DNA of 54,571 nt, the filler included, from Stramenopiles sp. TOSAG23-3 (lineage: Eukaryota): assembly GCA_900128585.1 (NCBI GenBank). It is 4 parts of 4 records of this genome, joined end to end, with 100 filler letters (N's around TTAATTAATTAA, not from the genome) between each part and the next. Parts side by side here need not be neighbours in the genome. Positions count along the whole stretch, not along the records: positions 1 to 25,164 come from LT642292.1; 3 more parts are not named here. One strand, 5' to 3'. The translations under genes were made by a program, and so were the position numbers. Of this stretch, positions 15,849-38,400 are shown one piece after another (position 1 is the stretch's first letter; the number at the start of each line of letters is the position of its first letter). The notes beneath the pieces are model-generated. The model ran no database searches. It was not told the origin of the DNA and saw only the letters and a list, made by a program, of their open reading frames with translations.

Positions 15849-18800
15849 TTATGGTGCTGGAGATTCACCAGCTGTGGCATCGTCTTGTAACATCAGCCTA
15901 TCAGCTTTGCGATCGTCCATGTCTCGATAACTAGTTTCGCCGCGCGACTGGCGCCGGGGCTGCACCCGAGAGGGGGTGCCCGGGGGAAGCTCGCTTTTCT
16001 TTGACGATCGCTTCCCACTCCGAGCACTGCCGCGAGGAGATGCTGACTGCCTTCGAGCCACTTTCGAAAGCTTTCGCGGCGACGAAATCCGTCTCTGCCT
16101 GGGTGTGTTCTCGTTGGAATGCGGGGTGGACTTTCTCTTCTTCTCGCTGGTAGATGGCGTCTTTGCTTTGGTTTTTTTTAACTTTTCCAAAAAGTTTTCC
16201 TCCAACAAAGGCTCGCGATTCCTTGCATTCTCGGACATTCGGAACAAATTCGGCGGCAGCTTGAACTTCTCTGGCTCTCCAAACTCATTCTTTTTCGAGG
16301 ATTTCGATTTCGATTTCATTGTCAAAATCATCAGCTCCGCGACAGTCCGTGTATATTTTGTCTTCCTCAGCACATCGTCGCTGTTGTCGACGCAGCGCAA
16401 CAACTCCATCAAGTAGGAAAAATTATAAAACCCAGCAGACGGGAAGGATTTCAACAGAAAATTGATTAACCGGCGCTGCGAACTGTACTTTTCGTCGTCC
16501 TTCCGACCGTAATAATGAGCAATCAAATGAGCAGCGTAAACAACCAGGCTCTCCGGGCGATACAAATTTCGGAGCAAATCCAGGGTATGATCGGGCAAAT
16601 TTGGGGTCTTGGCGTACTGGAAGAAGACACGCTTGGCCGCGTTCAAAATTTCACTAATCTGCTTTTGTGCATCACTCTTTGCGCTGATGTCCTCGTCCAG
16701 GCCCCGGAGAACCAACAAGGCCCCATATTTTGTTGGCTTCCCCAGTGGTCTTTTGGACGTAGAGCAACACGCCTTCTTGACCCTTTCGCAAAATTCATCC
16801 CTTACGTACTCGTCTTTGTCTTTGACTAACTGGCCCAGCACTTGCCACGTCCTGGCATCCACGACCGCTTCGATTTCATTGCGGCGTGCGCACTTCAAAA
16901 CGGCATTTCCAGCAGCCAGCCGCACTGCAGAATGCTCGCTGTCTCGAACGAATCGTCGCATTGAACTCATCACACGCTCCCCTTCCCGGAGGAACAAGGG
17001 GCGTGATCCCTTCAGCGGAGAATTTATCAAGCTGTTACCCAGCCATTTTATTGCGGAGACCACCACTGACGTCGGTACGCTCGGCTGCTGCGACCCCGAC
17101 GAGTGCGCCTCGCCCTGCCGTGGCGTGCAGTGCTTCTTCACAAAACTGTTTATCTTGTCCCAGCATCCCTCTATCATGTTCGGAAGGCTTTCCGCGCAGA
17201 CCGCGAAACTCATCAGCACAGCGTCAAGGTGCTCGTTTTCGATGGACAACGAGTCCCCGGCCATGCACTCTCGAATGTAGTGGTTCCAAAACATAATTCC
17301 CGTCTTAGATTTAGGCTGCTGGATTGTTGCTAAGATGCGCGTCGCGTACTTTGCGTGGTCTGCGACGCCGTTCTTCCCTATGTGAATCAGCGTTTTGATG
17401 ACGGAGCTTGTGATATACTTCGACAAAACGTGCGAACCAACTTTCGATAACGTTTTCGCCAGTGTTCGCAAAACACTCTGGGCGATATCAACGTGCTCCG
17501 AGGAGAGCAGCGGCGTCATATATTTCAGCGCCCACTCTAGGTGGTCGGGCATCTCCGCGTCGCAGGTGACTTCGCCGATAAACTGGAGAACATCTAGCGC
17601 CTTCCCCTCGTCGTTGTCGTCGTTGCATTCTTTCGCAATGCGCGCGATATGGCCGAACGATAGCTTCTCTGCGGAGACCGTCGGCACAATAATAAGGCTA
17701 AAGAGGGACTTGAAGTATTGGCCCAACGGCGTCTTCGATCCCAGCCGTCCAAGGATGTAATCGCGAGAAGCAATCGCGTCTTTGTACGAAATGGACGAAG
17801 TGCATATATTTACAAGCGATCGAAAGATGGTCTGGTCCTTCGACTCCAGCAAGGTTGCAAAATGTTTCTTGCCGTTTTTCCCCGGGAGATTATTCGCAAG
17901 GGCCCCGACGGTCACGTCGATCGTTTTCTGTACACTGCGCTTCTTCTTGTCGGCGCCTGCAGGCGCGTCTGCCGCCGACGAAAGCGCTTTCTTCAGGTCC
18001 TCCCGCAGCGCCACCATTTTTTTCACCTGCTTTCGTACCACACCACGAAACTTCAGCGCCGAAATGAACGCGTCCCGCTGGTCCCGAGAAAACGAACGGT
18101 AGCAAGACACAAGTATTTCCGCCCTGACTTTCAACGAGGCCCCTTTCGGGAGAATGACTTGGTCGAACATCTTCCATGTGGTCATCTGCTGAGCAGGGCT
18201 TCGGTTGGGCCGAGCAAAGGTTTGCACGAGCGCTCCTGGGATCTCCAGAACCCGCTCTGTAATATTATTCGAGAACTGCGTGAAGAACGTAGAACCGAGC
18301 GTTGGGTCCCAATCCTGTGGCCATATGTTACTAATGTAGGCAGCGAAAACTTTGGCCAAGCCCACCGTTGCCGCGCGCGACACCTCCGTCTTCTTGTCGT
18401 CCATGCGGTTGATAATGCGGCGCAAGGCGCTCTTTGGCAAGAGCATGACGTTGTAAAACGCTAGGGTGCACAGTTTGTCTACCGCCTGGAACCGAACATC
18501 GACGTCTATATCTAACAATTTCTCTACGACCCGTGGCAAAATATCGCCTTGAAGTTCTGGCCGTGCCCGCTGCAGCTGGACGCCACCGATGACCATCTCC
18601 TTGCGGACCTGGGGCGACTTGTCCAAGAACCGCCCGAGCCAGTCTTGAAAAACAGCCTGGTGGTCCCTTGCCAAATGCGTGAATTCGGCAAACAATTTAC
18701 CAAGAAGGGCCACTGTCCTTAATCGAATGTTCTCGTCTTCTGCCTGGAGCTGCTGCCCCAAGTTCGGCATGATGCTGAGCAAAATATTAAAGTTCTTCTT

Positions 18801-19682
18801 TCTGCAGATAAGGTGCAGCTCGTAAATCAACGGGTGTACGTATTTTCTAATTTCACTCTTCTCTTCTCCCACGACGGACGTGCTCACCAAGGTGCTGTTG
18901 ATAAAGTCCACGATGCTCGGGACCAAGGAGTCAAGGCAGTGCGAAATTATCATCCGGACCAGTTTGAAAGATCTCGGCTGCTCCGCGACCCGGGCCATTT
19001 CTCCGTCGATCAGCTGGAGCTCGCCGTCGTTTCTCAGCTCTTTGATCAGCGGGCGCAGGAGGACGTCCAGGACGCTCTCTGGGATCCCTCCGTCCTCCAT
19101 TTCGTCCAAACAGGTGCACAGGATTTGCCCCATGGCGGCGGAAATTCCTTGGGAGTGCCGAGGGTGAATGCTCGTGAGAACGGCGTCGAAAAGGTCGACA
19201 ACCATGCTCTCTGAGTGTTTCGCGCTTTCCATAAAGTCTTCCACAAGCAGAACGCCCAGTGAGTCCTCCGCAAACACTTGCAAAATCCGGCAACGCGTGG
19301 GGAACGCGCTGTCCGCCATGTCCGGCACTCCCCTGATTTGCTGAATGATTAGGTTAAATATACCCTTCATCACGGATCGTTTCAGTTTCGGTTTGTTGGG
19401 CGCCACGACCCGTAGGACTTCGGTCAAAATTCCGGCCGTGAGAACGCGAACGTCCTTCTGTTTGTGCTGGATCATTGCGCTGCTTGCCAGAATGGGCAGC
19501 GCAAAGTCGCTTAATTCCGGGATTGCGCCAGAGACGTGCCTGTCCTTGATGCTCGCGTACAACGCTTCCAAGTGCTTCAACATTTGAGCCTTTTTGAACG
19601 TCTGAAAGTTGACCTGCCCTAATTTTCCCAACGGCGTGTTCTTGTACGCCGTGGACGTCTTCTTTCTTTTTCGGGTAGTCAT
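15849..19682 (-). CDS. PDS5: Sister chromatid cohesion protein PDS5
   Basis: HKQKDVRVLTAGILTEVLRVVAP, HPLIYELH, QLQAEDENIRLRTVALLGKLF, WLGRFLDKSPQVR, RMDDKKTEV, HEAT repeats and a basic S/TP-rich tail. The likely start is MTTRKRKK (19682); the ORF extends to 19862. Confidence 0.93.
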   Translation of the reverse strand: MTTRKRKKTSTAYKNTPLGKLGQVNFQTFKKAQMLKHLEALYASIKDRHVSGAIPELSDFALPILASSAMIQHKQKDVRVLTAGILTEVLRVVAPNKPKLKRSVMKGIFNLIIQQIRGVPDMADSAFPTRCRILQVFAEDSLGVLLVEDFMESAKHSESMVVDLFDAVLTSIHPRHSQGISAAMGQILCTCLDEMEDGGIPESVLDVLLRPLIKELRNDGELQLIDGEMARVAEQPRSFKLVRMIISHCLDSLVPSIVDFINSTLVSTSVVGEEKSEIRKYVHPLIYELHLICRKKNFNILLSIMPNLGQQLQAEDENIRLRTVALLGKLFAEFTHLARDHQAVFQDWLGRFLDKSPQVRKEMVIGGVQLQRARPELQGDILPRVVEKLLDIDVDVRFQAVDKLCTLAFYNVMLLPKSALRRIINRMDDKKTEVSRAATVGLAKVFAAYISNIWPQDWDPTLGSTFFTQFSNNITERVLEIPGALVQTFARPNRSPAQQMTTWKMFDQVILPKGASLKVRAEILVSCYRSFSRDQRDAFISALKFRGVVRKQVKKMVALREDLKKALSSAADAPAGADKKKRSVQKTIDVTVGALANNLPGKNGKKHFATLLESKDQTIFRSLVNICTSSISYKDAIASRDYILGRLGSKTPLGQYFKSLFSLIIVPTVSAEKLSFGHIARIAKECNDDNDEGKALDVLQFIGEVTCDAEMPDHLEWALKYMTPLLSSEHVDIAQSVLRTLAKTLSKVGSHVLSKYITSSVIKTLIHIGKNGVADHAKYATRILATIQQPKSKTGIMFWNHYIRECMAGDSLSIENEHLDAVLMSFAVCAESLPNMIEGCWDKINSFVKKHCTPRQGEAHSSGSQQPSVPTSVVVSAIKWLGNSLINSPLKGSRPLFLREGERVMSSMRRFVRDSEHSAVRLAAGNAVLKCARRNEIEAVVDARTWQVLGQLVKDKDEYVRDEFCERVKKACCSTSKRPLGKPTKYGALLVLRGLDEDISAKSDAQKQISEILNAAKRVFFQYAKTPNLPDHTLDLLRNLYRPESLVVYAAHLIAHYYGRKDDEKYSSQRRLINFLLKSFPSAGFYNFSYLMELLRCVDNSDDVLRKTKYTRTVAELMILTMKSKSKSSKKNEFGEPEKFKLPPNLFRMSENARNREPLLEENFLEKLKKTKAKTPSTSEKKRKSTPHSNENTPRQRRISSPRKLSKVARRQSASPRGSARSGKRSSKKSELPPGTPSRVQPRRQSRGETSYRDMDDRKADRLMLQDDATAGESPAP

Positions 19683-20528
19683 GAGTCCTCGCTGATGCGG
19701 GTTGTCCAGTTGATCCCCTTGGTTGCGTACGTTCTTAACCCCTTTCCTTTTTTCTTTCCGTGCGTTCGGGTACTTTTTCTCGGTAATATTATGAACAAAA
19801 TCTGAAGCAGTACTTTGTTCATTCTTTTGAAAACACGGTCTCTTCAAAAACAAACCGTTCATTTATATAATCATCAAATTGGTTGGTTGGTTGGTAGGTA
19901 GGTATACAAAGTATATCTTATTGTAAAACCTTTCTTCTTCTTTTTTTTGAAATTATTTTTTTTTTTTTATTATTTATTTCTACTAACAACTAGAGAGCTA
20001 ACAACTACTGTATTATTACATTATTATTTGTTGTTTTTTTCTTCTTCTATCTTTTTTAATAATAAAATAATACCTAATGCTGTGTATAGCCAATATGGAT
20101 ATTTATTATTATTTATTGTTGTGTATTACTGGAATCATTTAGTATTGCTACAGTATCGCCAATATATGTTATACTTATACTTAATTAACACTACTAAACT
20201 ATTTTAATTGATTTATAGTCAAACATACAGATGCTATGTTCTTCCTAGAAACAAGAGGCTACTCTATACCTTGGTATCCTCGTAATTAATATTAATGGAA
20301 TTAAGCCGACAGAGAACTAGAGAACAGAGAGAGACTTCCCGCCAAATCATTCATAACTACAACTTTAATACCCTATTTTGAACTCTTATACCGTTGCCTT
20401 GCCGTTTCATGAATACGAGGATACGAGGTAGATATAAGAGACCGATGATATTAGAAGAGGAGGTGTGGAGAGTGGAGAGTAACCTTTTTATGACGATGAT
20501 GTCTAAAACTTAATACACCACACATTAG

Positions 20529-20671
20529 CTCGCTATTGGGGTAGCTTTTGGGGCTTATTGGGGTAGCCGAGCTACCCCAATAAGAAAAATACACAAACAG
20601 AAATTATTTCTATACAGGCACATATCGTTGGCCCCAAAAATATACAAAATATTTTTCTTATTGGGGTAGCT
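20529..20671. repeat. Left-end array of four TATTGGGGTAGC sites with nested inverted repeats
   Basis: Copies at 20534-45 (+), 20556-67 (+), 20571-82 (-) and 20659-70 (+). Perfect 14-bp inverted repeat 20554-67/20571-84 with a 3-nt spacer; perfect 22-bp inverted repeat 20570-91/20650-71. Confidence 0.92.
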
Positions 20672-21468
20672 TACGCACCCCGGTTATAGATAGGAAATGC
20701 TGTAGTCAGTCAAGTACGAATAAGAAATTTGTTCGTTATTTTTTAGTCCATTTTTTAGAGTTCTTTTACAATAATAGACGACTAATAAATAATAATAATG
20801 TGATTAATAATGAAACATAATGATGTGAATAATACTGTAGTAGTATATATTTATCTTTTTTATTAAAAGAACGAAATGCATCGTAAAAACTGTAATATCT
20901 GATATATTACACTACTGAATAATGTCTTAAGTACAATTAAAAATCCGCCGGTTTTAGAGATGCTCCAATGTTCTGTGATGTTCAAAAAATAAAACAAAAT
21001 CTTGGCAAAACGTCAAAAAATAAATTGATAGGACAATATTTGTTCTCTATGCTGTGTTTATGTATTTCATTCCCATTTTTTAGATAAAAGTTTTAATAAT
21101 AAAATAACAGTAATAAAAAAAATAATAATTTAATATAAAAATTGTCATCATCACTATACTAGTATATCATCACAGTATCATCATCGTCGTCGTCGTCAAT
21201 CAACAATAATATTTTTTTTTTAATAAATATTATTTTTATTATTATTTTTTAACTTTTTTTATTATAATTATTATACCCCAAGAGGAGTATTATATTTGGT
21301 ACAATATTGATACAAAAATTAAAGGCTTGCCAACGAAGTGGGACAAACTTATTGTTATCTGAGTTTACGAGAAATTCTGACATCAATAATTTAAAACACA
21401 TCAGCCCCTATTGTTCAGATAGTGTATCAATTTAACCAGAGTACTGCGTGTTCTGTTACCTTTGAGAT

Positions 21469-23778
21469 ATGGCAAGCTTACCCAGTGCGGTGTCGGGTGC
21501 AAGGATAAAATCGGATTACGGCGAAGAGCTAAAAGATTTTGCGGAATGGTATTTTCAAATCTTTCCTACATTGGTTGCAAGTGGGGATGCGCGTCTATCA
21601 TTGTTTAAAAAAGCAAATCCACCACAGTATTTTGAATTTCAGGATAAAATAAAATACGTTGAACATATGGAAAGGGAAGTGGACAATAACGTCGTGTTCA
21701 CTTTCATTTTATATAAAAGAGATAATCATTTTTGGCCAAGAGGTCAGAAGGGCAAAGCGTTTTTTGACCATTTGAGGAGTGGTTTAAAACTCAGGCTGGA
21801 AGATATATCATCAAATGCTGCATATTATTCGCGTGCGGCAGAAATTAATATAAAAAATTTCTACGGAGGACTTGAAAAAAACTTGGCTGACAAAGCCAAA
21901 CTTGAAGGGTGGGAAAATAAGTCTTGTTCATCGGTGCCGTGGCTAATTTATGAGAAAATGTGTGCGGTTTTAATATTAAAAGATGTAGAGCATTGGCTCA
22001 TGTTTATTTTACAGTGGAATTTAATGAGTAGATCTATAGATATTGCTAAAATTAATATTAGTGCTTTATCCTTTTCAAAAGATATGCTTACACTGGAATT
22101 TTCACATGAAAAAACAGCGCGAAAAAAAAATGAAAAAGCTACCACAGTGCATATTGCATCAAATCCAAACAACCCGATTGTTTGCCCTGTGCTTGCCTTT
22201 GCCGTAAACTTCTGTTGCAGAAATATGGACTCATTACGCCTATTTGATGGTTCAAGTATACAACAACACTACGGTAATGCTGTAAAATGGGCTTTACAGC
22301 ACAGCATTGTACAAGAAGAATTAAAACATCTTGGGTTAACAGAGGCTAAAGTGGCTACCCATACATTAAGAAAATCAGCAGCTACTCATGCTGCTGGAGG
22401 TACTGATGGTACGCCCATGCACTTCACAATTCTTCTTCGCGGTGGCTGGTCTATTGGTAACGTACTTGATAGGTACTTTTCACTAGCAGAGAACGGTGAC
22501 AGGGTGTTAGCAAATCTACTAGCTGGTAGAGAATACTTTAGCAAAGAATTTGCTAGGTTAATACCGCATTTTAAAAGAGGAAGCAACATAAAATCAGAGG
22601 TTTTACGATCAATTTATTGTGGAAAGTATGTTGAGGAACACTTTGAGGAACTAGAAGGTGTTTTACATATATTTACAGCACAATTAGTTTATCACAATGC
22701 TACACTCAAAAAGATACTTGATAAAGAACACAAACTCTGCTACATTATGGACCGTAACTTATTGCATGCAAAATCATTTCAAGATGCTCTCGGTCCTGAA
22801 TTTGAAAGCAAAAACTCAACGTTTAAAGCAACTGGCCAAGGCGGCGCCGTAATTTATCACCGACTTGATGCTATCGAATCCTCAATACGTTCCATTGAAA
22901 ACTTTCTCATGAGGGGACAGTTTGGTGTCAATCCATCAAGAAATGAATGTAACCAATTGATGATTGAAATTGCCAAAATAAAAGAAACACAAGTTTCTAA
23001 TTTTCAAAATTTACAGCGGGACATACGAACAGCAATGAGCGCTGATACAACGAACGTAATACCCGTATCGCTAAATGTATTTGTACACCACACACAAAAC
23101 AAAAAAGTTTGGAAAGTTAGTAAGGATTACAATTTCCCTGCCAACTTTCAGGAACTGGCAACACAATACATTTTTAGTAACAAAAAAACTTGCCAAACGG
23201 CACTGCGAGAGTGCCTTCCCTCAAACGTTTACTACAACAATCCTGGCCTTTCCCCAGAAGAAAACGCACGGAGGAAAAAACAATTTTCACGCCACTACAG
23301 CAAGTGCATACTTGCAGTGCAAGTATTTCTCCAGTACGCTTCTTGTGAGTTTACAGCCAAATTTAATGATCTAACAAAATCGTTCTATTCTATTGATCCG
23401 TGGAGCCGGGGTGCAAAATGGAATGAGCTATTCTCTGTTGCATTTAAAAAATTCTCACAGGAAGTGTTGGCAACTAATTCAAGAAAAAGAAAATTAAACC
23501 AGTTGAATGGCAGAACAATCTACAATGCGATTTCAAAGAAGAGAGGTGCTTTAAAAAAAACTTTCATAAGTTCATTACGGGAACGATGTGCGTTGCCGCC
23601 TGCAAAGAAGTCAACGGCCATGCAGTGGTCATTCAAATTGCCTCAAATACGCCTTGCCGAAGAAGAAGACAATAAAATAATATCACCGATGATGATTGAT
23701 GATGATGACGGTGATGATCCAGCAGCAAGAACATCATCAGAGCATACAAGTGATAGTAATGAAATAATATTAATTTAA
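21469..23778 (+). CDS. Crypton-type (CryptonS-like) tyrosine recombinase, catalytic residues intact
   Basis: WNLMSR188, HEK215T, NPNNPIVCPVLAFA, TH298TLR301KSAAT and RGGW327SIGNVLDRY336 form the R-K-HxxR-W-Y set. The C-terminal WKVSKDYNFP region is similar to CryptonS-type proteins. Codon usage is AT-rich, unlike the neighbouring genes. Confidence 0.9.
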   Translation: MASLPSAVSGARIKSDYGEELKDFAEWYFQIFPTLVASGDARLSLFKKANPPQYFEFQDKIKYVEHMEREVDNNVVFTFILYKRDNHFWPRGQKGKAFFDHLRSGLKLRLEDISSNAAYYSRAAEINIKNFYGGLEKNLADKAKLEGWENKSCSSVPWLIYEKMCAVLILKDVEHWLMFILQWNLMSRSIDIAKINISALSFSKDMLTLEFSHEKTARKKNEKATTVHIASNPNNPIVCPVLAFAVNFCCRNMDSLRLFDGSSIQQHYGNAVKWALQHSIVQEELKHLGLTEAKVATHTLRKSAATHAAGGTDGTPMHFTILLRGGWSIGNVLDRYFSLAENGDRVLANLLAGREYFSKEFARLIPHFKRGSNIKSEVLRSIYCGKYVEEHFEELEGVLHIFTAQLVYHNATLKKILDKEHKLCYIMDRNLLHAKSFQDALGPEFESKNSTFKATGQGGAVIYHRLDAIESSIRSIENFLMRGQFGVNPSRNECNQLMIEIAKIKETQVSNFQNLQRDIRTAMSADTTNVIPVSLNVFVHHTQNKKVWKVSKDYNFPANFQELATQYIFSNKKTCQTALRECLPSNVYYNNPGLSPEENARRKKQFSRHYSKCILAVQVFLQYASCEFTAKFNDLTKSFYSIDPWSRGAKWNELFSVAFKKFSQEVLATNSRKRKLNQLNGRTIYNAISKKRGALKKTFISSLRERCALPPAKKSTAMQWSFKLPQIRLAEEEDNKIISPMMIDDDDGDDPAARTSSEHTSDSNEIILI

Positions 23779-23826
23779 ATATTCAAAAAAAAAAAAACAT
23801 CATCAGAGCATACAAGTGATACTAAT
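23730..23826 (+). repeat. 31-bp direct repeat of the recombinase ORF 3' end, separated by an A13 run
   Basis: aacatcatcagagcatacaagtgata(g/c)taat at 23730-23760 and 23796-23826. Confidence 0.9.
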
Positions 23827-24031
23827 TAATAATTAACTCTCCCCTCTTATTTATATGTTAAATTGATTATTTAAAAAAAAAATATTCATTCAAACAACTA
23901 CACTGTGTTGTTATTGCTTTTATAATAAATAGAACAGACGACTATTACCGTTTCCTGTAATCTCATTATAGGGATTGTTAGGGATTGTCGCTAATGGCGG
24001 AGAGATGCCGAAGTTGATGCTATGCCATGTA

Positions 24032-24081
24032 GGGTAGACAAGCTACCCCAATAAGACAAAAAAAGCTACCCTAATAGCGAG
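24032..24081 (-). repeat. Right-end inverted repeat of the recombinase element
   Basis: gggtag-acaag-ctacccc palindrome, gctaccccaata at 24042-53 and gctaccctaatagcgag at 24065-81. Confidence 0.9.
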
Positions 24082-24355
24082 GGAAAGCACAGTATTATTA
24101 CAGGTAGTATTTTATTATTTTTATGTGATGAGAAAAAAATGTGATCATATATCATGTATATTTTGTATATGACCAAAATGTATATAAAAGTCATATAACG
24201 ACATGAACGGTACAGATATGAAATTTGTTGTTAAAAGCGTTCTAGTTACCCCTCTCTTTTATTTTAAATAAATTCTAAAAAGTATAGTGCGTGCTAGGAA
24301 GGATTGCGGCAAGGTGTTTTTTATTTGATCGTTTTATGCACGTATTGTTTGGATA

Positions 24356-25164
24356 ATGGCAGCGCCGGAAACTTCGATGGACCCACCGTTGCCTCCTGGT
24401 GATGACTTGGCGTCTTCTATTTCGCACGTTTTCAACCTTATTGATTCGGACAGGAGTGGAACCTTGGAGAAAAAGGAGCTTTTAAAAGCCCTCGTGTTTG
24501 ACCCAGACGTCTCAATGGCCTTGACGAAATACCCGACGATACATGTGCTGGGAAAACCACGGCACTTTAAAGACGCGTTGGTCAAGATGGACACGGAAAA
24601 GAACGGGCACATAACGCTGCGAGAATTTACCGTATTCACAAAAGGAATCACGATGAGTGAAAACGAAAAGAAACTACGGGCGGTGTTTAAAATGGTCGAC
24701 AAACATAGCCATGGAAAAGTTGACAAAAAGGAGGTCTTGAAATCCCTCTCCCTGAACTTTTTTGTCATGGATATTTTGGAAGGGATCGAAGAGTTAAAAC
24801 ACTTGCTTGATCCCCATCACTACGAAGAGTCGTTTCATGAAATGGATGTTGAACACCATGGTTACGTGACCGAGGACGAATTCGTCCAATTTGCAAGAAA
24901 CCATCACGTCGCAATGAAAGAAAAAGAAGACGCTGCCGCATTGGCAAAGCTGGTAGAAGACGAAGAGAAGAAGAGGTTGGCGGAGAAGAAGGCCGCCATT
25001 TCGGACGAGACGGAAGCCGCGCTGCCGCTGCAAGAGGAGGAAGCGCCCAGACAAAAAGAGATCGCTCCCAAGACAGAAGAAGAGGTCGCCCCCAAGACAG
25101 AAGAAGAGGTCGCTCCCAAGACAGAAGAAGAGATCGCCCCCAAGACAGAAGAAGAGGTCGCTCC
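24356..25164 (+). CDS. Four-EF-hand calcium-binding protein with an acidic repeat tail; 3'-truncated by a gap
   Basis: EF loops DSDRSGTLEKKE, DTEKNGHITLREF, DKHSHGKVDKKE and DVEHHGYVTEDEF. Confidence 0.85.
25057..25164 (+). repeat. Coding 24-bp minisatellite (E[I/V]APKTEE)n, at least 4.5 units, running into the gap
   Basis: agag(a/g)tcgc(t/c)cccaagacagaaga repeated in tandem. Confidence 0.95.
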
Positions 25165-25264
25165 NNNNNNNNNNNNNNNNNNNNNNNNNNNNNNNNNNNN
25201 NNNNNNNNTTAATTAATTAANNNNNNNNNNNNNNNNNNNNNNNNNNNNNNNNNNNNNNNNNNNN
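25165..25264. other. Assembly gap with artificial TTAATTAATTAA linker (also at 50285-50384 and 52429-52528)
   Basis: An identical N44-TTAATTAATTAA-N44 structure occurs three times; the 12-mer has stops in all six frames. Confidence 0.95.
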
Positions 25265-25266
25265 AG

Positions 25267-28200
25267 ACGGGGGCGACGGGGGTCAAGGAAGCAAAGAAGG
25301 AAGAGGAGATGCTCGCGTGCGGGGATTGCTCGTGCGACGACGGCGCCTCTGCTCAGTTCGAAACCATCAAAGGGATGAACAGCTGCTTCTGTTCGCATAA
25401 TTTTTTTGTTACACGCCGTAGAAAATGCTGGGGGCCAGTTCCCGAGCAAGTAGATGCCCTGGCCTGCAGCCAGTGCAACTGCCCGGCCGACGAGTTTCCC
25501 GTAGGCCAAGTGCACGTTCAGAAACGGTTCGGTGGGAAGGGAAACACTTGCACCTGTGCAGGGCGATCCGGCGTCTCCCGGCCGAGGGTGTGCTCTGGTG
25601 CATTGGAAGCGGAAGAGAGCCTGGTCAAGTGCTTCCATGCGAAGTGTGGGACGAGCGAGGAGCAGCTGGGTTACCAAATCATGGGCGGCAATGGGGTCAC
25701 GAAATTCTACTGCACGAAGACGGTCTCCACGGCCGGATCTTCGAAAACGAGAGAGGTTGTAACGAAGAAGCCCCAGCGGTGCACGGGGTACGTCAACGCC
25801 AAAAAGCTGTGCACGTCATGCAAGTGCAAGGCCAACGGTGCAAGCCCGTCGCTGGTCTTCGAGCGCATGCACGGAGACAACAACGTGTGCTACTGCAAAG
25901 GGGAGGAACGGACCACCGTCCCCGAACCGTGCGCCGGGCCGCTGCCGAGAGACACCGACCTGGACGGGGAGAAACCCACCTCCTCGGTGTACCGCCACTG
26001 GCAGGCCCACACGAATTTGCACGGGGCAACCTCTACGGAGCGGTTAAAGGAGGCACTGGGCGTTCTCCTGGCGAACAACGCAACGTTTCAAGAGATGGAA
26101 AACGTCATTGGCGGACTCTCGTCCCAAGTCAAGGTGGACAAGAACTCGGCCGATCTCATCCATTCCATGGATGCCCGGGGTTGCGCCCATTCGATCGGGG
26201 AATACTCGCAGGAAGTAAGCTCTGCCCTCAGTAGCCGGAACCAGTACAAGCAACAAGTGCAAGACCGCGAGAAGGACCTCGACCAAGCGAACAAACGAAT
26301 GAGCGCCTGGGCCAAGGAAAACAAGTACGCGAAGGACACCCTGAAAGACTTGAACACGCGAGCCGCAACCCTGAAGTCTTTGGAAGCCGTGGAGAAAGCA
26401 ACTGCCGATGCGCACGTTGGGTTGAAACGTGCGTTGGGAAACACCATGGCTATCCTGGACGATGGCCTTCAAAAGGCATTGCTCAAGAGCGACCCGGAGT
26501 ACAAAGAAGACGACGAGAACTCCGAAAGTGCCCAGTTGAAGCGATCCATTGGCGAAAACAACATCACGAAGCAGGTAGAGGAGGCAGACGACTCCGCTGC
26601 AGTGCCCGCCTCCCTTTTGGAGGAAGACAGCGACCTGCTGACTTCCAATGCCCCAAAAAGCTACCAGATGCACAAGCTTCCCCAGCACCAGTTTGATGAA
26701 TGGCACAAAACGATTGTTGCCCACAATAACTTGAATGCAATTTCAAACGAAATTGACGGCGTTGTTCGAACAAAAGCAGTGGATGTGTCCAAGGCGATAA
26801 ACGCACCGCTCTTGAAAAGCGAGTACAAGGACATGGGCAAAGGCCTGTCTGAAGAGGCAAAGGAAGTCAAGAAGAGGTACTCTGTCTCGTCCCAAACTGC
26901 GGAATACGACCGTTTGAGGACCCGCAAAACCCAGGCCAAGGCCGCCCTTGCGTCCGCGCAACAACGGCTGGCAGACGCGGAAAGCCTGCTGAGCAACATT
27001 CGTGAATTTAGCGGCAGCGTCACTCGCAGTTGCGAGCGCAAGAGCAACCGGTACAACCGGGAAAACAAGGAGCGCGTCCGAACCATTCGTATTGCCACCG
27101 ATCTGTTGGTTGCGATCGAGGCGGCCGCCAACGGGGCGTCCTTCCCGGACGAGCTCATGCACATCGAGCGAGAACTGGAGAACTACGAGAAGCCACTGGG
27201 GAAGTATGTCCCAATTGGCATTCGTGTTGGTACCCAAGCGCCATTAAAGGCGGGCAAAGAATGCGCGTACTACGTGAAAGCCGGGGATAGCACGGCATCG
27301 ATTGCACAAAAGTTCACGGTTGGCGAGGCTGCTCTCAGAAAAGCCAACCCATCGATAGAACACTTATACTATGATCGGAACCTGAAGGTGATTTACCCCC
27401 CGAAAGGCACACGCTTGACAGTACCGCGCAATATGTTGACCAAGAAAGCTGTGGCAGAATTTTGTAAAATTGAGCGTCCCACGGAAGCAGCCGCTGTACC
27501 GGATACTACGGAAAAGAGCGAGATGGCTGCCTGGTGCCAGGCACACGTCGATGCGCACGACAAACGGTCGTGCGGGCACCATGGTATTTGCATGGAGAAA
27601 ACGAATGGTATGTGCAAATGTAACCCTGGATGGGGTGGACCCATGTGCAAAACCAAGCTTTGCCACGACGAGTGCGAAAAACATGGTATGTGCACGAAAA
27701 GCGGGCGATGCTTGTGTGCACTAGGCTGGCAAGGGCTTGCTTGCCATGTCAAGGACTTGGCGACAAACGTTGAGCGTGACCCAAGTGATTTCAACGGATT
27801 GTTGAAGGAACAGGTGAAGACCGTTAAAAAGTGGGACATGACCCATCGCATTGAGCAACGCAGCAAGCGCATGGAAATGATCATCCGCAAGAAGGCGGCC
27901 ATTGCCAACAAAAAAGGCGATATCGTTCGCGTCAAGGAGGAAGCCGCCAAATCTGACAAGAAAGTGGCAACTGCTGAAAAGCGCCCTCTGCCGCAGATTC
28001 CCCAGCGCCGCCCTCCCTCGAAGGAGCACGACAATGTTGATAGTATTGTCAGGGCTCAAGACGCAATGGGGGTTGTGAAAGCGGCGATGCATGAGGTGCA
28101 CTCGTCGACGATCGCAGGGAACGTGTCCGACGCTGAAGACCAACTGTCACAAGCGGAGAATGCATACAATGTACTGCGCCAACTGAGCACGGGCACCGCC

Positions 28201-31200
28201 CCGTTGGATAACAAGACCATCGCAATCATTGGCAACATGAAGAACAAAAGCCAAATCCACTTGATGACGGCTAGAAACGACCTAGAGTGGGCCCAAAAGC
28301 AGTGCCTGAACGACTGTTTTGCTCCGAAGAAGGGAGAGTGCAATTATACAACTGGTAAGTGCACTTGCAAGCTGGGATTCGGTGGGGAGGATTGCTCCGT
28401 CGTCGTCGACTTGCGCACCGATGGTGACAAGTTGTGGGACAGCGCCAATAAAACCCAGTGGGACATCGAAAAGCTTAACGCTCATCTTCGGGAACTTGCA
28501 GTAGAGAAAAATCGCTCCGAAATAATACTTGCGAATGTAACCGCGGTATGGGACCTGCTCCAGGAGCGAAATATTTCAAAGCTTAAGAAAGTGTACAATG
28601 ATAGCAAGAAAGCGTACGACCATTTGGTCGATCTGCTTGAAACAAGAACATTGCGACTTCGTCGTTTCGAACAAAAAGAGTGGCCGGAACAAAAGCGTTC
28701 CGCAAAAGAGAACATACGTCGCATGATCCAAAGTTTGAAGAAACGGAAAGTAGGAGAGGAGAAATTGAAGAAAACTCGTGTGATCGAAATCCTTCGTTTG
28801 AGGAAAATGTTTGAAGCCAAAGGGCACCTGGTCCCAGACATTCTAGGATGGGAGGCTTTTGCTGCAGACAAACGCGCCGGCGCGAAAACACAGTACTACA
28901 ACACTATCACGGAGGAAAATACATACGAAAAGCCCAAGCAAATGGGCTACAGATGGAAAGACTACGAAGTTTACATCAACCATTTTGTGAAGAAGGAGGA
29001 GCCAGCGCTTCTTGAGCTCCCCAAGCAGCAGGCTAAACTAGTCCGCGATCCCGAGTCAATCCCGGTCGACGTTTTCAACGCTCCTGGACTTCTTGAGGCG
29101 AAATCCAAGTACAATAAAATTGTAGCTTCTGGGGAGGAATTAATAGCGAAAATGAAAAACGACGTCGCTGAAGCAACAAAGCTGATGACGATTGCCAAAG
29201 CAAAGATGGAAGCCGCCAAAGACGTGTTGACCCAAAGTGTAAGTGATGGCATGGAGGACATGAAGAAGGCCCAAAATATAGTCGATTCTGTTGTTGCTAA
29301 AATCCAGAAGACAACCCAAGCCCGGAATTACTTGGAAAAGATTGTTTTGCACGCACAGATGGAGAAAGCCCACGAGTACAGTAGGGGTGTGGTTGAGGCA
29401 ACTTCCAAGTTTGGGCGCAACGCGGATGCGCCACTTTCTGGCAAACTGCGCCAAGTCGAGGAGGAGAATGTAGACTTGCAGAAGAACGTAGACGAGTTGA
29501 GAGAGGAATACGCAAAAATTGGTGCTAAAAAGGCCGACCTAGAAAGGGTAGGAAAGGCCTTGGCATCCTCCGAAGTACGCAGGATGTCCGAGATTGAATC
29601 GGAAGTTAAATCGGCTGAAGGGTTGCTTGCGGCGAACTCGATGAAAATGGTAAAACTTCGCGACACGTTGAAAAAGTTAGCCCTTGCCCACATCGAATCC
29701 ACCAAAGAACGATTTAATCACACTTCGTTCTCAATTCCGAGGATTCAACGGTGGACAGCTTCGTTTAGTTTTCAACGCGCCGAAGATGCGTACAAAGAAG
29801 CGCTAGAAGAAATGTCCTCCTGCTCCGAACGACTCGAGATTTTGTCTGCCAGGTTAATACGAGCTGCAAAAACAGGTTTGTCCAAGGCCGCGATCGCCGA
29901 AGCGAAACGTCAACAAGAAGCAGCAGATGTCATGTTGGCAGCGAGCCAAAAGAAGACCGATGGAGCCTTGATGCGTTTGCATGCGGCCATGGAGCATGCC
30001 AAAGCACACGGCTTCAAGGAACCGTTACCCCTGGTTATTTACCCCTGGATGAAACCAACGCAGGAAGCGATCGCCGAAAGCAACCCATCTGTAGGAAGAT
30101 CTAAAATGATTGAGCGGGCTGTGGAGGAGATGAAAAAGCGCGTCGAAAGGGAGGACCTTGAACTAACTCGCAGAAAGGAGCAGGAACGGGACATGAAATC
30201 GTATATGGCCGCTTTGGCGGAGCAGATGGCGGCGATGAAGAAAAAACTTCAAGACGCCCGCAATTCTGGTAACAAGCAAGTCATGGCTGCGATAATGAAA
30301 CGGCAGGAGGAAGCCGAAAAGAAGAAGCTAGATATGCATAAAGATCTCGTTAGGCAACAAAAGGCGAACGAAGCCGCGGAAAAGAAGAGGCGCAGGGAAC
30401 TAGCGAATTTAGAGACATCGCTTCGAGAAGAAGAGGGGACGAAACGTAGAGATGCCGAGGAGTCGAAGAAAGCTGCAAAGCGCGCCAAGGTGAAAAAGAT
30501 GTTGGGCATTACTGGTGCGGCAAGCTCGACTGGTGCTACTGGCGCGGCAAGCTCGACTGGCGCTACCGGAGCTGTAGGCTCCCGTGTCAACGATTTGATA
30601 GAAGGTCTTGTAGGGTCGTCATCAACAGGAATAACGGGACTAGAAGACGAAACGGGGGCAACTGGCGCAACGGGAAGCCACGCTTCTGGTTCCACTGGGT
30701 CTAGTTTGAGATCCACTGGTGCCACTGGCAGCGCCGCCACTGGCCCTGAAGAGAGTCTTGCTGGAATTACTGGCGCAACCGGGGTATCAGATACAAAGCT
30801 TGAAGATATGACCGGAATTAGCCTGCCCAGACTATCTACGGGGGCAACCGGAGAAACTGGTGTTGCCCAGAAGGTCATCGATGAAGAAGCGAACGCGGAA
30901 AATGACGCAGAGAGGTTAGGCGCCGAGACGGGCCCAACGGGGGCTAATATGAAGGCCCAGACGCTTCAAGACGCACAGATGGCTCTCACCGAAGCTATGG
31001 ACGTGTTGCGCGCGAAAAAGAAAGCCTTGGCTGCGGCCAGGCTTGTCGGCGGTAACGTTGCTAACTTAGAAGATGAAGTGTCAGCTGCAGTAGATGCGGT
31101 GGGGAAAGCCCAAGCTGATTTGGACGAAGCGCGTGCAAATTCTGGAAAAAAAGCAGCAACAATGATAGTAGGAGACAAGAGAGGGGAGACCGGAGATGAT

Positions 31201-31482
31201 GGCGCCACTGGTGAAACTGGTGTTGAAGATGATGGTTCTGCGGAGCAATACCTGAAGTCGGCATCCGGCGCTACCATGGCCATTAGCGGTGCGACGGGCG
31301 AAGAAGAGGACGGTGATGACTCGTTTAGCAACGCAGTTACTGCGGCCAGTGGTACCGTAGGCGCGGAAAAGCCGAAAGGTACTGGAAGCACAGGCGCTAC
31401 TGGAGCGACTGGTATGCCAGTAGGAATTGCCTCAACCGCTGGAGCAACTGCTCTAGAGCTTCAAGAAGAAAGTGAATTTTAG
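25267..31482 (+). CDS. Giant (>2070 aa) probably extracellular protein with Cys-rich repeats, coiled coils, LysM, three EGF-like domains and TGATG repeats; 5'-truncated by a gap
   Basis: The frame is open back to the gap (TGATGVKEAKKEEEM). LysM: YYVKAGDSTASIAQKF...LRKANP...GTRLTVP. EGF: CGHHGIC...CKCNPGWGGPMC, CEKHGMC...CLCALGWQGLAC and CLNDC...CTCKLGFGGEDC. Confidence 0.85.
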   Translation, partial: TGATGVKEAKKEEEMLACGDCSCDDGASAQFETIKGMNSCFCSHNFFVTRRRKCWGPVPEQVDALACSQCNCPADEFPVGQVHVQKRFGGKGNTCTCAGRSGVSRPRVCSGALEAEESLVKCFHAKCGTSEEQLGYQIMGGNGVTKFYCTKTVSTAGSSKTREVVTKKPQRCTGYVNAKKLCTSCKCKANGASPSLVFERMHGDNNVCYCKGEERTTVPEPCAGPLPRDTDLDGEKPTSSVYRHWQAHTNLHGATSTERLKEALGVLLANNATFQEMENVIGGLSSQVKVDKNSADLIHSMDARGCAHSIGEYSQEVSSALSSRNQYKQQVQDREKDLDQANKRMSAWAKENKYAKDTLKDLNTRAATLKSLEAVEKATADAHVGLKRALGNTMAILDDGLQKALLKSDPEYKEDDENSESAQLKRSIGENNITKQVEEADDSAAVPASLLEEDSDLLTSNAPKSYQMHKLPQHQFDEWHKTIVAHNNLNAISNEIDGVVRTKAVDVSKAINAPLLKSEYKDMGKGLSEEAKEVKKRYSVSSQTAEYDRLRTRKTQAKAALASAQQRLADAESLLSNIREFSGSVTRSCERKSNRYNRENKERVRTIRIATDLLVAIEAAANGASFPDELMHIERELENYEKPLGKYVPIGIRVGTQAPLKAGKECAYYVKAGDSTASIAQKFTVGEAALRKANPSIEHLYYDRNLKVIYPPKGTRLTVPRNMLTKKAVAEFCKIERPTEAAAVPDTTEKSEMAAWCQAHVDAHDKRSCGHHGICMEKTNGMCKCNPGWGGPMCKTKLCHDECEKHGMCTKSGRCLCALGWQGLACHVKDLATNVERDPSDFNGLLKEQVKTVKKWDMTHRIEQRSKRMEMIIRKKAAIANKKGDIVRVKEEAAKSDKKVATAEKRPLPQIPQRRPPSKEHDNVDSIVRAQDAMGVVKAAMHEVHSSTIAGNVSDAEDQLSQAENAYNVLRQLSTGTAPLDNKTIAIIGNMKNKSQIHLMTARNDLEWAQKQCLNDCFAPKKGECNYTTGKCTCKLGFGGEDCSVVVDLRTDGDKLWDSANKTQWDIEKLNAHLRELAVEKNRSEIILANVTAVWDLLQERNISKLKKVYNDSKKAYDHLVDLLETRTLRLRRFEQKEWPEQKRSAKENIRRMIQSLKKRKVGEEKLKKTRVIEILRLRKMFEAKGHLVPDILGWEAFAADKRAGAKTQYYNTITEENTYEKPKQMGYRWKDYEVYINHFVKKEEPALLELPKQQAKLVRDPESIPVDVFNAPGLLEAKSKYNKIVASGEELIAKMKNDVAEATKLMTIAKAKMEAAKDVLTQSVSDGMEDMKKAQNIVDSVVAKIQKTTQARNYLEKIVLHAQMEKAHEYSRGVVEATSKFGRNADAPLSGKLRQVEEENVDLQKNVDELREEYAKIGAKKADLERVGKALASSEVRRMSEIESEVKSAEGLLAANSMKMVKLRDTLKKLALAHIESTKERFNHTSFSIPRIQRWTASFSFQRAEDAYKEALEEMSSCSERLEILSARLIRAAKTGLSKAAIAEAKRQQEAADVMLAASQKKTDGALMRLHAAMEHAKAHGFKEPLPLVIYPWMKPTQEAIAESNPSVGRSKMIERAVEEMKKRVEREDLELTRRKEQERDMKSYMAALAEQMAAMKKKLQDARNSGNKQVMAAIMKRQEEAEKKKLDMHKDLVRQQKANEAAEKKRRRELANLETSLREEEGTKRRDAEESKKAAKRAKVKKMLGITGAASSTGATGAASSTGATGAVGSRVNDLIEGLVGSSSTGITGLEDETGATGATGSHASGSTGSSLRSTGATGSAATGPEESLAGITGATGVSDTKLEDMTGISLPRLSTGATGETGVAQKVIDEEANAENDAERLGAETGPTGANMKAQTLQDAQMALTEAMDVLRAKKKALAAARLVGGNVANLEDEVSAAVDAVGKAQADLDEARANSGKKAATMIVGDKRGETGDDGATGETGVEDDGSAEQYLKSASGATMAISGATGEEEDGDDSFSNAVTAASGTVGAEKPKGTGSTGATGATGMPVGIASTAGATALELQEESEF

Positions 31483-35412: not shown

Positions 35413-38400
35413 ATGGCAGTATCGTTCGAAAAGGACACCTGGGTATGGTGCCCGGATGAGGAAGATTTATTCCTTCCCGGCAAAGTTCAAACGTCCTTCA
35501 AACGTGGCGAGCAGGGGGAAGTAGTGTTTTCCAATGGGGAAGAGCATACCATTTCTGAAAAAGAATCCGCCAAGCTAACAGTATGTGATATCCAGAGTCT
35601 AGAGCCTATTGAGAACATGGTCCAACTGAATGACTTGAACGACGCCAGTATTCTGCACAACTTACGCATTAGGTTCCAGCAAGACTCTATCTATACCAGC
35701 GTTGGCCAGATTTTGGTTTCTGTGAACCCATTTAAGCTGCTTCCCATCTACACGCCAGAATGGCTTGATAAATACAAGGGCGGCTCACGGGGCCAGCCAC
35801 CCCATGTTTACGGCGTTGCCGATGATGCATATAGGCAAATGATTGCCAACGCAGACAACCATGCAATCATTATTTCCGGAGAGAGTGGCGCTGGTAAAAC
35901 AGAGGCTATGAAACTGGTGCTGCAGTACGTTGCAGAGGTTAGCGGTAAACGGGAAACAGAAGGTCCGTCGTTGGAGGAACAAATTTTGAAAGCAAACCCT
36001 GTTATGGAAGCATTCGGTAATGCCAAGACGGTGCGCAACAATAACTCTTCTAGGTTTGGGAAGTGGACCGCAGTGAAGTTCGACAAAGGCGGGGCAATAA
36101 TTGGAGGTAAAATTGTGAATTACTTGCTCGAAAAGTCGCGTGTGGTCTCCCAGTCCGAAAACGAGAGAAACTACCACGTGTTTTACCAGCTGTTTGCGGG
36201 TGCGGAGAAATCTAAACACGAGTCCGGGGCCGGAAAGACCAACTGGAAAACACTGTTGGGGGTTGGAGAAGCTCAAGATTACCTCTACACCAACCCTGAA
36301 AACCGTCTGGAAGCCTCCAAAGGAGTAGGAACACAGGTCAAGGGGATAAATGACGAGCGTGAATTTGAAGACTTGCTCAATGCGATGAAAGTCATTCAAA
36401 TGGATGATGGCGAGATTGAAAATGTGCTCAAGATCGTTGCTGGCATTTTGAATCTGGGAAATGTGCGCTACGTCCCTGACCCTTCTGCCGCGGGGGAAGA
36501 AAAAGTCAAAATTGACAACAAAGACTCGCTGCAGAAGTTCTGTTCCCTTTTGCAGGTGGACGAGATCCCCATGGAACGTTGCCTTACAAGCAGGGGGATC
36601 GGGGCGCACTCCGTGATTCAAGTTTCTTACAAGCTTGACGAGGCAACACAATCACGCGATGCTTTGGCAAAGACTATTTATGGCAACCTGTTCGACTGGC
36701 TTGTGGGGAAAATCAACACAACTTTAGCAGCTTCGACCGATGAAAAGGCTGTTAGCACGATAATCGGCGTATTGGATATATTTGGATTTGAAAGTTTCGA
36801 AAAGAATTCGTTTGAACAGCTGTGTATCAATTACTGCAATGAAAAGCTGCAGTTTCATTTCAACGAGCATATATTCAAACTCGAACAAGAGCAATACAAA
36901 AACGAAGGAGTCTCCGTCGACAACATCACATTTGTTGACAACCAGCCCGCGCTGGACTTAATCGAGAAGAAACGAGAAGGGATCATTGCCATGATTGATG
37001 AAGAAATCCGCACCCCGAAGGGTAGTGACCTCAAGATGCTCTCAAAACTTAACAAGGCTCATGGCACTAAAGGCAAAGAACATATTAATTACAAAATGCC
37101 AAGACCGCGGGCCAAAGACTCTGACCGCAGCTTTATTTTCTTACACTATGCTGGCCCCGTCACATACGATGTCACAGGGTTCATGGAAAAATCGAAAGAC
37201 ACGCTGCATGCTGATATAGCAGCGGTAATGCAGACATCCAAAGACAATTTGTTGCGGACCCTATTTCCACTGCCTACCCCCGCCGCCCCTAGCACGGGCC
37301 GGCGCCGGGGCGGTGGTAAGGGGGCTTCCAAGAAAACCTTAGGGACACAATTTAAAACCCAATTGAATGAATTGATGATCACGCTCAATTCAACAAGCCC
37401 TCATTTTATCCGGTGCTTTAAGCCTAATAAAGAAAAGGTCGGCAACATATTCACTGCAGATATGATGTTGCAACAACTTCAATACGCCGGGTTACTGGAA
37501 GTATGCCGCATTCGGCAAGTGGGGTTTCCGATCCGGTACGATTTTGATACATTTTTAAATCGGTACAGCTGTTTGATGCATGGCAAGACATCTGACCTAG
37601 ACGGTCTGTTGAAAGAACTGTGCCACAACAAAACTCTCGATAACACACAATATGCGAAAGGAAATACAAAGGTATTTCTGCGGAACGAACAAGCCCAGAA
37701 ATTAGAAATAGGGCGTGAGACAGCTTTATCTGCCGTTGCTACGCGGATGGCCGCAATGGCTCGTCGCTTCTTGCAACGCATCAGGTCAGCGCGGTATTCT
37801 AATATTTTAGCATCATTGGAAAAGGCCAAATCTTCTCGAGACGGAAAAGAAATTGAGCATTGGCTTGTACAGGCTGGGGAGCTTCCCTTTCGTGGAGTCC
37901 ATTTAAAAATAGTCAGGGAGTGTACGGCACTGCTAGAAGTGATCCAGGAAGAGCGAAGAGTTGAAACTCTCCTAACGAACGCAATATCGGCGAGAGAAAT
38001 CAACGGTCTGCTTGGTGCAATCAAAACCGCCAAAGACATGGGTATGCGCTCAAGTGCGTTGACGGAAGCACAGAGTTTAGTTGGACGAATCCAAGAGGAA
38101 GCTAAGTTGAAAAGTAGCCTTTCGAAAGCAGTCAAAGACCGCAATCGTAATGACTTGGAAACATTCTCTGCCAAAGCACAAGAACTCGACCTTAATGAAA
38201 CGGCCGAGTATAAACAAGCAGTGGCCTTGCTTGAGCGAATACGGTTGGAAGAAGACGCCGTCGGGCACCTTCAAGGCGCCATTGAAAGCAAAAATACAAA
38301 TGAACTTAATGCATATTTACAGCAAATGGTGGAAATGGGCTTGGACGATTCAGGTCGTTTTCCACAGTTTTCTAAAACGATTGCAGAAGCAAAAAAGCTA

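Follow-up and report, generated by a model that had tools for sequence, protein, structure and literature searches.

Among the DNA transposons of eukaryotes, Cryptons are, to our knowledge, the class about which least is understood. In the parts of the survey of Kojima & Jurka (2011; PMC3212892) on which we draw, their short terminal repeats are treated as recombination substrates and a circular intermediate is proposed; the elements listed there carry repeats of 5–8 bp (TATGG in most CryptonS, CTGTAAG in a diatom element) or, in fungi, of 4 or 6 bp, and Cryptons are described as being without terminal inverted repeats, with the listed exception of an element with 602-bp ones. The same parts present the kinetochore protein Ndc10/Cbf2 as Crypton-derived. 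The element described here lies in a stretch of 54,571 nt, filler included (the window), made of four joined parts of the genome of Stramenopiles sp. TOSAG23-3 (assembly GCA_900128585.1), within the part taken from record LT642292.1 (positions 1–25,164), and occupies positions 20525–24087 of the plus strand, to which all coordinates refer unless stated otherwise. We give a probability of roughly 80% to the reading that it is a DNA transposon of the Crypton type, which has a tyrosine-recombinase gene as its sole gene and is joined to its target through the tetramer CACA, a palindrome around the exchange point being likely incidental.

Crypton activity has been observed directly, according to the portion of PMC9977147 used here, only for CryptonF-1_cRei of Chlamydomonas reinhardtii, an element that ends in CACCG, uses a CAYCG target with one mismatch tolerated, inserts near genes and leaves by clean excisions that retain only the target, as seen directly in mutation-accumulation lines. 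For marine picoeukaryotes, a preprint figure legend lists ‘YR cryptons’ among the transposon classes of Mamiellales, the legend itself holding no site data.

As far as these descriptions extend, the window element resembles Cryptons in its size (~3–4 kb), single tyrosine-recombinase gene, lack of a reverse transcriptase, short terminal direct repeats and low copy number; it departs from them in its 4-bp repeat, CACA, in its 21-nt subterminal inverted repeats set within imperfect arms of ~60 nt, in an array of an 11-nt motif and in a recombinase that is invisible to Pfam. The mismatch in terminal inverted repeats is not decisive, because the survey itself lists exceptions. Set against the description of CryptonS, the stramenopile Cryptons (a conserved C-terminal region, no GCR1_C and repeats of the TATGG type), it shows no GCR1_C domain by Pfam and has CACA, not TATGG, as its repeat. 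With CryptonF-1_cRei, in turn, it shares a fixed terminal motif matched by a short target (here CACA, perhaps CACANTA), a clean empty allele and a position between divergent genes, whereas the motif is different and shorter, and mobility is read here from population polymorphism and from copies in other contexts.

The empty allele and the CACA repeat

Logan contigs of four runs were aligned on positions 19500–25100; the empty allele comes from two of these, independent marine metagenomes. In run X3, a 2,074-nt contig spans 19500–20520 and continues with 24088–25091, with four differing letters, and a 375-nt contig of X13, from a study other than that of X3, has the identical joint. The joint, from 20520 to 24088, skips 3,567 bases and leaves four bases that fit either side; therefore, the direct repeat is CACA (20521–20524 and 24088–24091) and the element proper is 20525–24087, i.e. 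3,563 bp, or 3,567 bp with one CACA. The host DNA on both sides, namely TAATAC (20511–20516) and ACCA (20517–20520, reaching from the left palindrome arm to the crossover) on the left and GTATTA (24092–24097) on the right, is kept in the empty allele, in which the uninterrupted site reads TAATAC-ACCACACA-GTATTA, with a spacer of eight bases (N8) and exactly one CACA. The same limits are indicated by base composition, the GC content being 0.32–0.37 in the element, about 0.48–0.50 in the flanks beside it and about 0.45–0.55 in the remaining window, and by the homology with another copy, L112, which ends directly after CACA.

These data bear on an earlier interpretation made from the sequence alone (the sequence-only reading), which had taken the insert as a Crypton-type element with a tyrosine recombinase and a short terminal direct repeat marking the crossover. 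In this it is borne out by the catalytic residues, the fold and the empty allele. On rereading, the four hexamers on which it was built do stand at 20511–20516 (TAATAC), 20517–20522 (ACCACA), 24086–24091 (AGCACA) and 24092–24097 (GTATTA), and an empty allele exists, though it is not the predicted one: it has the N8 spacer and the skip of 3,567, which refutes an exchange between the hexamers, as this would need N6 and 3,569. The crossover is the 4-mer CACA of the joint in place of the longer A(C/G)CACA; the proposed boundaries were two bases off, an outcome that the reading itself had named as counting against it. The distance of exactly 6 nt that it gave between CACA and either inverted repeat is right for the right end; on the left, the true CACA is 4 nt outside, and 6 nt is obtained only by placing it at 20519–20522, in a left flank that reads CACACA.

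The empty allele was found in two of the four runs (X3 and X13), and near-identical element contigs stand at other places in the same runs. In X3, these include one of 3,038 nt and one of 571 nt, whose left side leaves the element for unrelated DNA; the population thus carries the element elsewhere while the window's site is empty. Such a presence/absence polymorphism with precise boundaries is mobility, and the element is real, recently mobile and Crypton-like. Contig depth, a poor measure, is 13.3–14.1 for the element in X3 and 7.76 for the flank, a ratio of only ~1.8. Small shares of matching sequence were also registered in the RNA runs X15–X20, and no expression is claimed from them.

In X13, a single contig passes from 20636 straight to 24033, with a skip of 3,396 bases and a shorter side of 30 letters, and may represent an internally deleted, non-autonomous derivative (~170 bp) or a repeated-motif artefact. 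Furthermore, contigs of several runs leave the element at shared internal points, within 20896–21057 and at 21537; the exit at 21057 is found in X3 and X11 (a 3,965-nt X11 contig being common over only 162 nt) and that at 21537 in X3 and X9, and AT-rich upstream parts of the element seem to occur in other contexts or in element variants. The summed contig depth over 23614–23800, the GAT-rich, low-complexity 3′ end of the open reading frame (ORF), rises to 3,181 in X3 and 262 in X13, a jump that probably reflects simple-repeat cross-matching and not copy number.

A metagenome scan with an alignment of the subfamily yielded 27 loci. In L112, whose protein is 91% identical, the right end reads ...GCGAGGGAAAG-CACA, as in the window, and is followed by the unrelated flank ATACTAAC; in L113, a 64% relative, the ends are joined head to tail via a single CACA, the junction (L113 3374–3378) being, on the window-comparable strand, ...CTAATAGCGAG-GGAAAG-CACA-GTCCAG-CGTTATTAGGGG..., and two adjoining left-end copies differ by indels. 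The tetramer is a constant and not a random duplication: L112 and the window agree up to and including CACA and not beyond, and CACA is present once in the L113 junction. The circle junction of the sequence-only reading had two bases too many: ...GGGAAAG-CACA-TTAGCT... is expected, and L113 shows ...GGGAAAG-CACA-GTCCAG....

Related subfamilies have other repeats: ATC in L114, L115 and L128; AGAT in the integrated L118 compared with the closed cycle L119; GAAA in three insertions (L133, L134 and L138) and once in the head-to-tail junction of L134 (47–50); and AGGTRTAGG, a 9-mer with one mismatch, in L127 compared with the cycle L135. The rule of the family, to judge from these alignments, is that every subfamily has its own fixed repeat of 3–9 nt, which is single in head-to-tail junctions. 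Joined ends occur in 6 of the 27 loci (L113, L119, L121, L123, L134 and L135), among which closed cycles are recognized by terminal overlaps of 22 nt (L119), 126 nt (L121) and 99 nt (L135), while L123 is the L121 cycle cut within the gene; L121 and L134 also extend, at the boundary, beyond their joined ends into flanking sequence. A scan of IMG/VR with the protein alignment returned 57 pattern matches and no relatives, and the 111 loci found there with CTTATTGGGGTAGC, each with one motif copy, were rejected as chance.

The recombinase and the array of motifs in the ends

The single ORF of the element (21469–23778, plus strand) encodes a protein of 769 amino acids, P0001, made up of a tyrosine recombinase (about residues 10–430) and a helical C-terminal region; the three other ORFs listed in 20525–24087 (67–99 amino acids) all lie within its coordinates. 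In an alignment of 73 sequences, five residues never vary (R188, K215, R301, R324 and Y336) and two more, H298 and W327, show a conservation of at least 90%; the R-K-H-R-W-Y catalytic set of tyrosine recombinases is complete in P0001. The AlphaFold (AF2) model has a confidence score (pLDDT) of 83.4, and the Protein Data Bank matches listed by Foldseek are all tyrosine recombinases (Flp, Cre, Xer, IntI) or Ndc10, with Flp as the best (1flo, E = 3.9e-4); the family profile matches Cre (E = 0.01). On the alignment and the predicted structure, P0001 is best described as a tyrosine recombinase of the Flp/Cre/Xer fold with an intact active site, its predicted likeness to Flp and Cre consisting in the two-domain fold and the R-K-H-R-(H/W)-Y arrangement. 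The matches to Ndc10/Cbf2 are weak, both structurally (3sqi_A, E = 0.033; 4aco, E = 0.034) and by profile (6gsa_E, E = 0.082), and, unlike Ndc10, which lost the catalytic residues, P0001 keeps them all.

Pfam detects no family in P0001 at E ≤ 1, including GCR1_C and DUF3504, and none over the curated cut-off in 30 relatives, three of which show sub-threshold matches to SAM-like N-terminal domains; in a representative protein library, the relatives of P0001 number 1,748 at E ≤ 0.001. The nearest ESM Atlas clusters, which serve as a lead only, are hypothetical proteins of Oomycota and diatoms, besides NDC10_II/GCR1_C and DUF3504 clusters. Residues 431–728 taken alone are predicted to be helical (pLDDT 65.2) and give only helical-hairpin matches (Z ≤ 7.2), none of them informative. 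Reverse transcriptase, RNase H and long terminal repeats are absent from the element, given a single long ORF and no Pfam family at E ≤ 1, and a repeat scan of the window found no long direct repeats in it.

At the 3′ end of the ORF, a direct repeat of 37 nt (92%) is found at 23727–23763 and 23793–23829, and a near-identical database protein, P0002, ends in ...TSSEHTSDTN, the product expected if the 66 nt between the repeats were removed. A GT..AG cut fits this removal, so that a small intron is one possibility and a deletion variant another; in the DNA contig of X3 the 66 nt are retained.

The ends of the element carry the inverted repeat that had been noticed from the sequence alone, which is real: two 21-nt copies, 95% complementary, at 20529–20549, beginning 4 nt inside the element, and at 24061–24081, stopping 6 nt inside it. 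A motif scan with ATTGGGGTAGC, a putative binding element of the recombinase, found, with one mismatch allowed, six matches in the 54.6-kb window, all within the element ends, a number reached by none of 100 shuffles. Copies 1 (20535–20545) and 4 (20660–20670) are on the plus strand; copies 2 (plus, from 20557) and 3 (minus, from 20571) form a palindromic pair with a 3-nt gap (20557–20581); copies 5 (24042–24052) and 6 (24065–24075, with one mismatch, inside the right inverted repeat) are on the minus strand. Both ends follow a common plan, i.e. a terminal motif, a gap of ~10 nt, a second motif and then an inverted copy, which makes them imperfect inverted arms some 60 nt long; at the expected junction of the element, its own inverted repeats are 14–18 nt apart. 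L113 carries an analogous array, with six copies of a motif of its own, TTATTAGGGGAGG. The terminal 23 nt on the right, CCCTAATAGCGAGGGAAAGCACA (24069–24091, CACA included), are identical in L113 despite arms that are only about 70% alike, which argues that the terminus is functional.

The palindromic nature of the inner motif pair also gives the two ends a direct repeat of 29 nt, 90% alike (20561–20589 and 24032–24060); each copy looks core-type, with arms of ~12 nt and a 7-nt spacer, and no contig showing recombination between the two was seen. The recombinase gene is colinear between the window and L113, but the ends are swapped around it: the left end of the window (20531–20672) matches, inverted, the downstream end of L113 (3225–3367), and the right end (24010–24091) matches the upstream one (1–78). 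L114, L115 and L128 have the end-to-gene orientation of L113, and L112 has that of the window. By this comparison, one lineage has undergone an inversion, either of the gene body or of the entire attachment region.

The palindrome at the target and the rival explanations

The sites of Flp (FRT) and Cre (loxP) have inverted arms of 13 bp around an 8-bp spacer, and full identity of the spacer is needed. The empty site of the window, with its perfect 6 + 6 arms and 8-bp spacer around the crossover, calls such sites to mind, and the recombinase might recognize TAATAC-N8-GTATTA as a Cre/Flp-like, core-type target, the palindrome defining target choice; we regard this as unlikely. How often a perfect 6 + 6 inverted repeat has the crossover in its spacer by chance was counted on the window's empty allele. 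With spacers of 6–8, this was the case for 497 of 50,904 positions (0.98%) and 3 of 319 CACA sites, and, with spacers of 4–12, for 1,060 positions (2.1%) and 9 CACA sites; at a local GC content of at most 0.35 (the site itself has 0.25), the figures rise to 375 of 8,092 positions (4.6%) and 578 of 8,092 (7.1%), respectively. The palindrome alone, noticed after the fact, is not beyond chance. A canonical core-type target, with inverted arms of 11–13 bp and an overlap of 6–8 bp, is not what is found here: the arms are 6 bp, far shorter than the 11–14 nt of the element's repeated motif, unlike ATTGGGGTAGC and out of register with the element's own dyad, and the inverted repeats at the element's junction are 14–18 nt apart, not 8. 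In these respects, the target and the element junction both differ from FRT and loxP, as do the partners, which share only four (perhaps six of seven) bases. The best motif-like match in the flank scores 6, and scores of at least 7 occur in 1.8% of 30-nt windows; the half-site TTATTACAGGTAG of the right flank, with an unremarkable local score of 6, was dropped.

Other insertions lead in the same direction. A perfect palindrome of at least six bases (spacer 4–12) surrounds the crossover in only one of the five reconstructed complete targets, the window's own; in the four targets of related subfamilies, no perfect 5- or 6-base arms are found at these spacers, except for one 5-mer in L138, although L114 has a loose AATACT-N12-ATTATT with one mismatch. 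The preference for TAATAC/GTATTA put forward by the sequence-only reading thus lacks support, in a comparison of few sites in which L112 is the only other insertion of the subfamily. Most likely the arms arose by chance in AT-rich intergenic DNA; at most, they reflect a weak preference. The first bases after CACA are like those at the element's other end, with CACATTA in the element, CACAGTA in the window's target and CACAATA in the L112 flank; partner similarity, on these three sequences, may be looser and slightly longer, CACANTA, which would be a simpler partial explanation than the palindrome and recalls the mismatch tolerated in the Chlamydomonas target.

Inverted repeats near both ends, together with a 4-bp direct repeat, could also be the signature of a cut-and-paste transposon with terminal inverted repeats, CACA being a target-site duplication produced by staggered cleavage. 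This is very improbable, as the only ORF is a tyrosine recombinase and there is no DDE or other Pfam domain, the inverted repeats begin 4 and 6 nt inside the ends, the independent copy L112 has the same CACA (chance 1 in 256), and head-to-tail junctions carry one repeat copy, with GAAA in all three insertions of the L133 subfamily. Harder to dismiss, if still doubtful, is the idea that a ~3-kb circular episome, normally extrachromosomal like the yeast 2-micron circle with its Flp, has become integrated here: joined ends are seen in six of the related loci, the contigs with relatives' proteins are element-sized (2.6–5.7 kb) and the best fold match is Flp itself. Yet the element has no replication gene and the modest depth in X3, subject to the caveat given above, is only ~1.8 times that of the flank; in L134 and L121, the joined ends are followed by flanks, as would suit copies in tandem in a chromosome, the adjoining left-end copies of L113 differ by indels, and several relatives clearly sit in chromosomes (L114 on a contig of 24.7 kb, L133 on one of 12.1 kb). 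Along similar lines, and no more than tentatively, the unannotated family of 1,748 relatives might be regarded as integrative mini-circles of marine protists, i.e. closed DNA of ~2–3.4 kb with one Flp-like recombinase and a palindromic motif-array attachment region, entering chromosomes at matches of 3–9 bases. That the attachment region is found in either orientation to the gene (window and L112 versus L113 and L114) suggests recombinase-driven flipping as in the 2-micron circle.

Several observations weigh against the preferred reading of a Crypton-type transposon joined through CACA, with an incidental palindrome. The palindrome is nominally unusual, since only ~1% of positions show such an arrangement; ATACTA, which follows CACA in L112, is like GTATTA at four of six bases; and a 72-nt X3 contig from another context aligns from the element to 24095, i.e. 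through CACA and four flank bases, before diverging, all of which would suit a palindromic target or a weak preference for such flanks. The alignment of the 571-nt X3 contig reaches no farther left than 20522, so that one other copy may share ACA instead of CACA at the left. The head-to-tail contigs can, as sequences, be either circles or tandem arrays, which are indistinguishable, and neither a circle nor a filled junction of the window locus is present among the 32 contig pieces listed for the four runs; as 296 further pieces and 154 loose ends stand outside that list, this carries no weight in either direction. Finally, studied tyrosine recombinases have an overlap of 6–8 bp, compared with which the identity here is shorter, at 4 bases, and the innermost inverted repeats are farther apart, at 14 nt; for this reason, the cleavage points are not fixed by the sequence.

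Genomic setting and proposed mode of recombination

The element is placed in a divergent intergenic region of its host, a marine microbial eukaryote with long uninterrupted ORFs. The gene for the cohesin factor PDS5 (15849–19862, minus strand) has its start facing the left side of the element, and an EF-hand gene (24356–25216, plus strand) lies on the right. Downstream, uninterrupted ORFs of 2,057 (25309–31482) and 2,077 amino acids (35413–41646) are found, the former with weak teneurin-type EGF matches, one under and one over the Pfam cut-off.

In the mechanism that we propose for the Crypton-type element, the recombinase would bind the two terminal arrays of ATTGGGGTAGC and join the ends that carry them as ...GCGAG-GGAAAG-CACA-TTAG-CTCGC..., in a circle or at a tandem copy, the expected joined-end sequence being ...GCGAGGGAAAG-CACA-TTAGCTCGC... 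with one CACA. This junction would exchange strands with a target in which little is needed beyond CACA (perhaps CACANTA). Integration and excision would both be conservative, no duplication being made, and excision, as the reverse reaction, would restore the site.

A tidy palindrome at a site that has been reconstructed may lead astray: here, the prediction drawn from it was two bases off and the preference did not generalize. The boundaries of Cryptons are notoriously hard to define, and here they are base-exact, by way of natural empty alleles and of the joined ends of relatives. As few as three to four identical bases suffice to mark the exchange point, and, with putative binding elements arranged in order at either end, the proposed circle-integration model would be straightforward to test biochemically.

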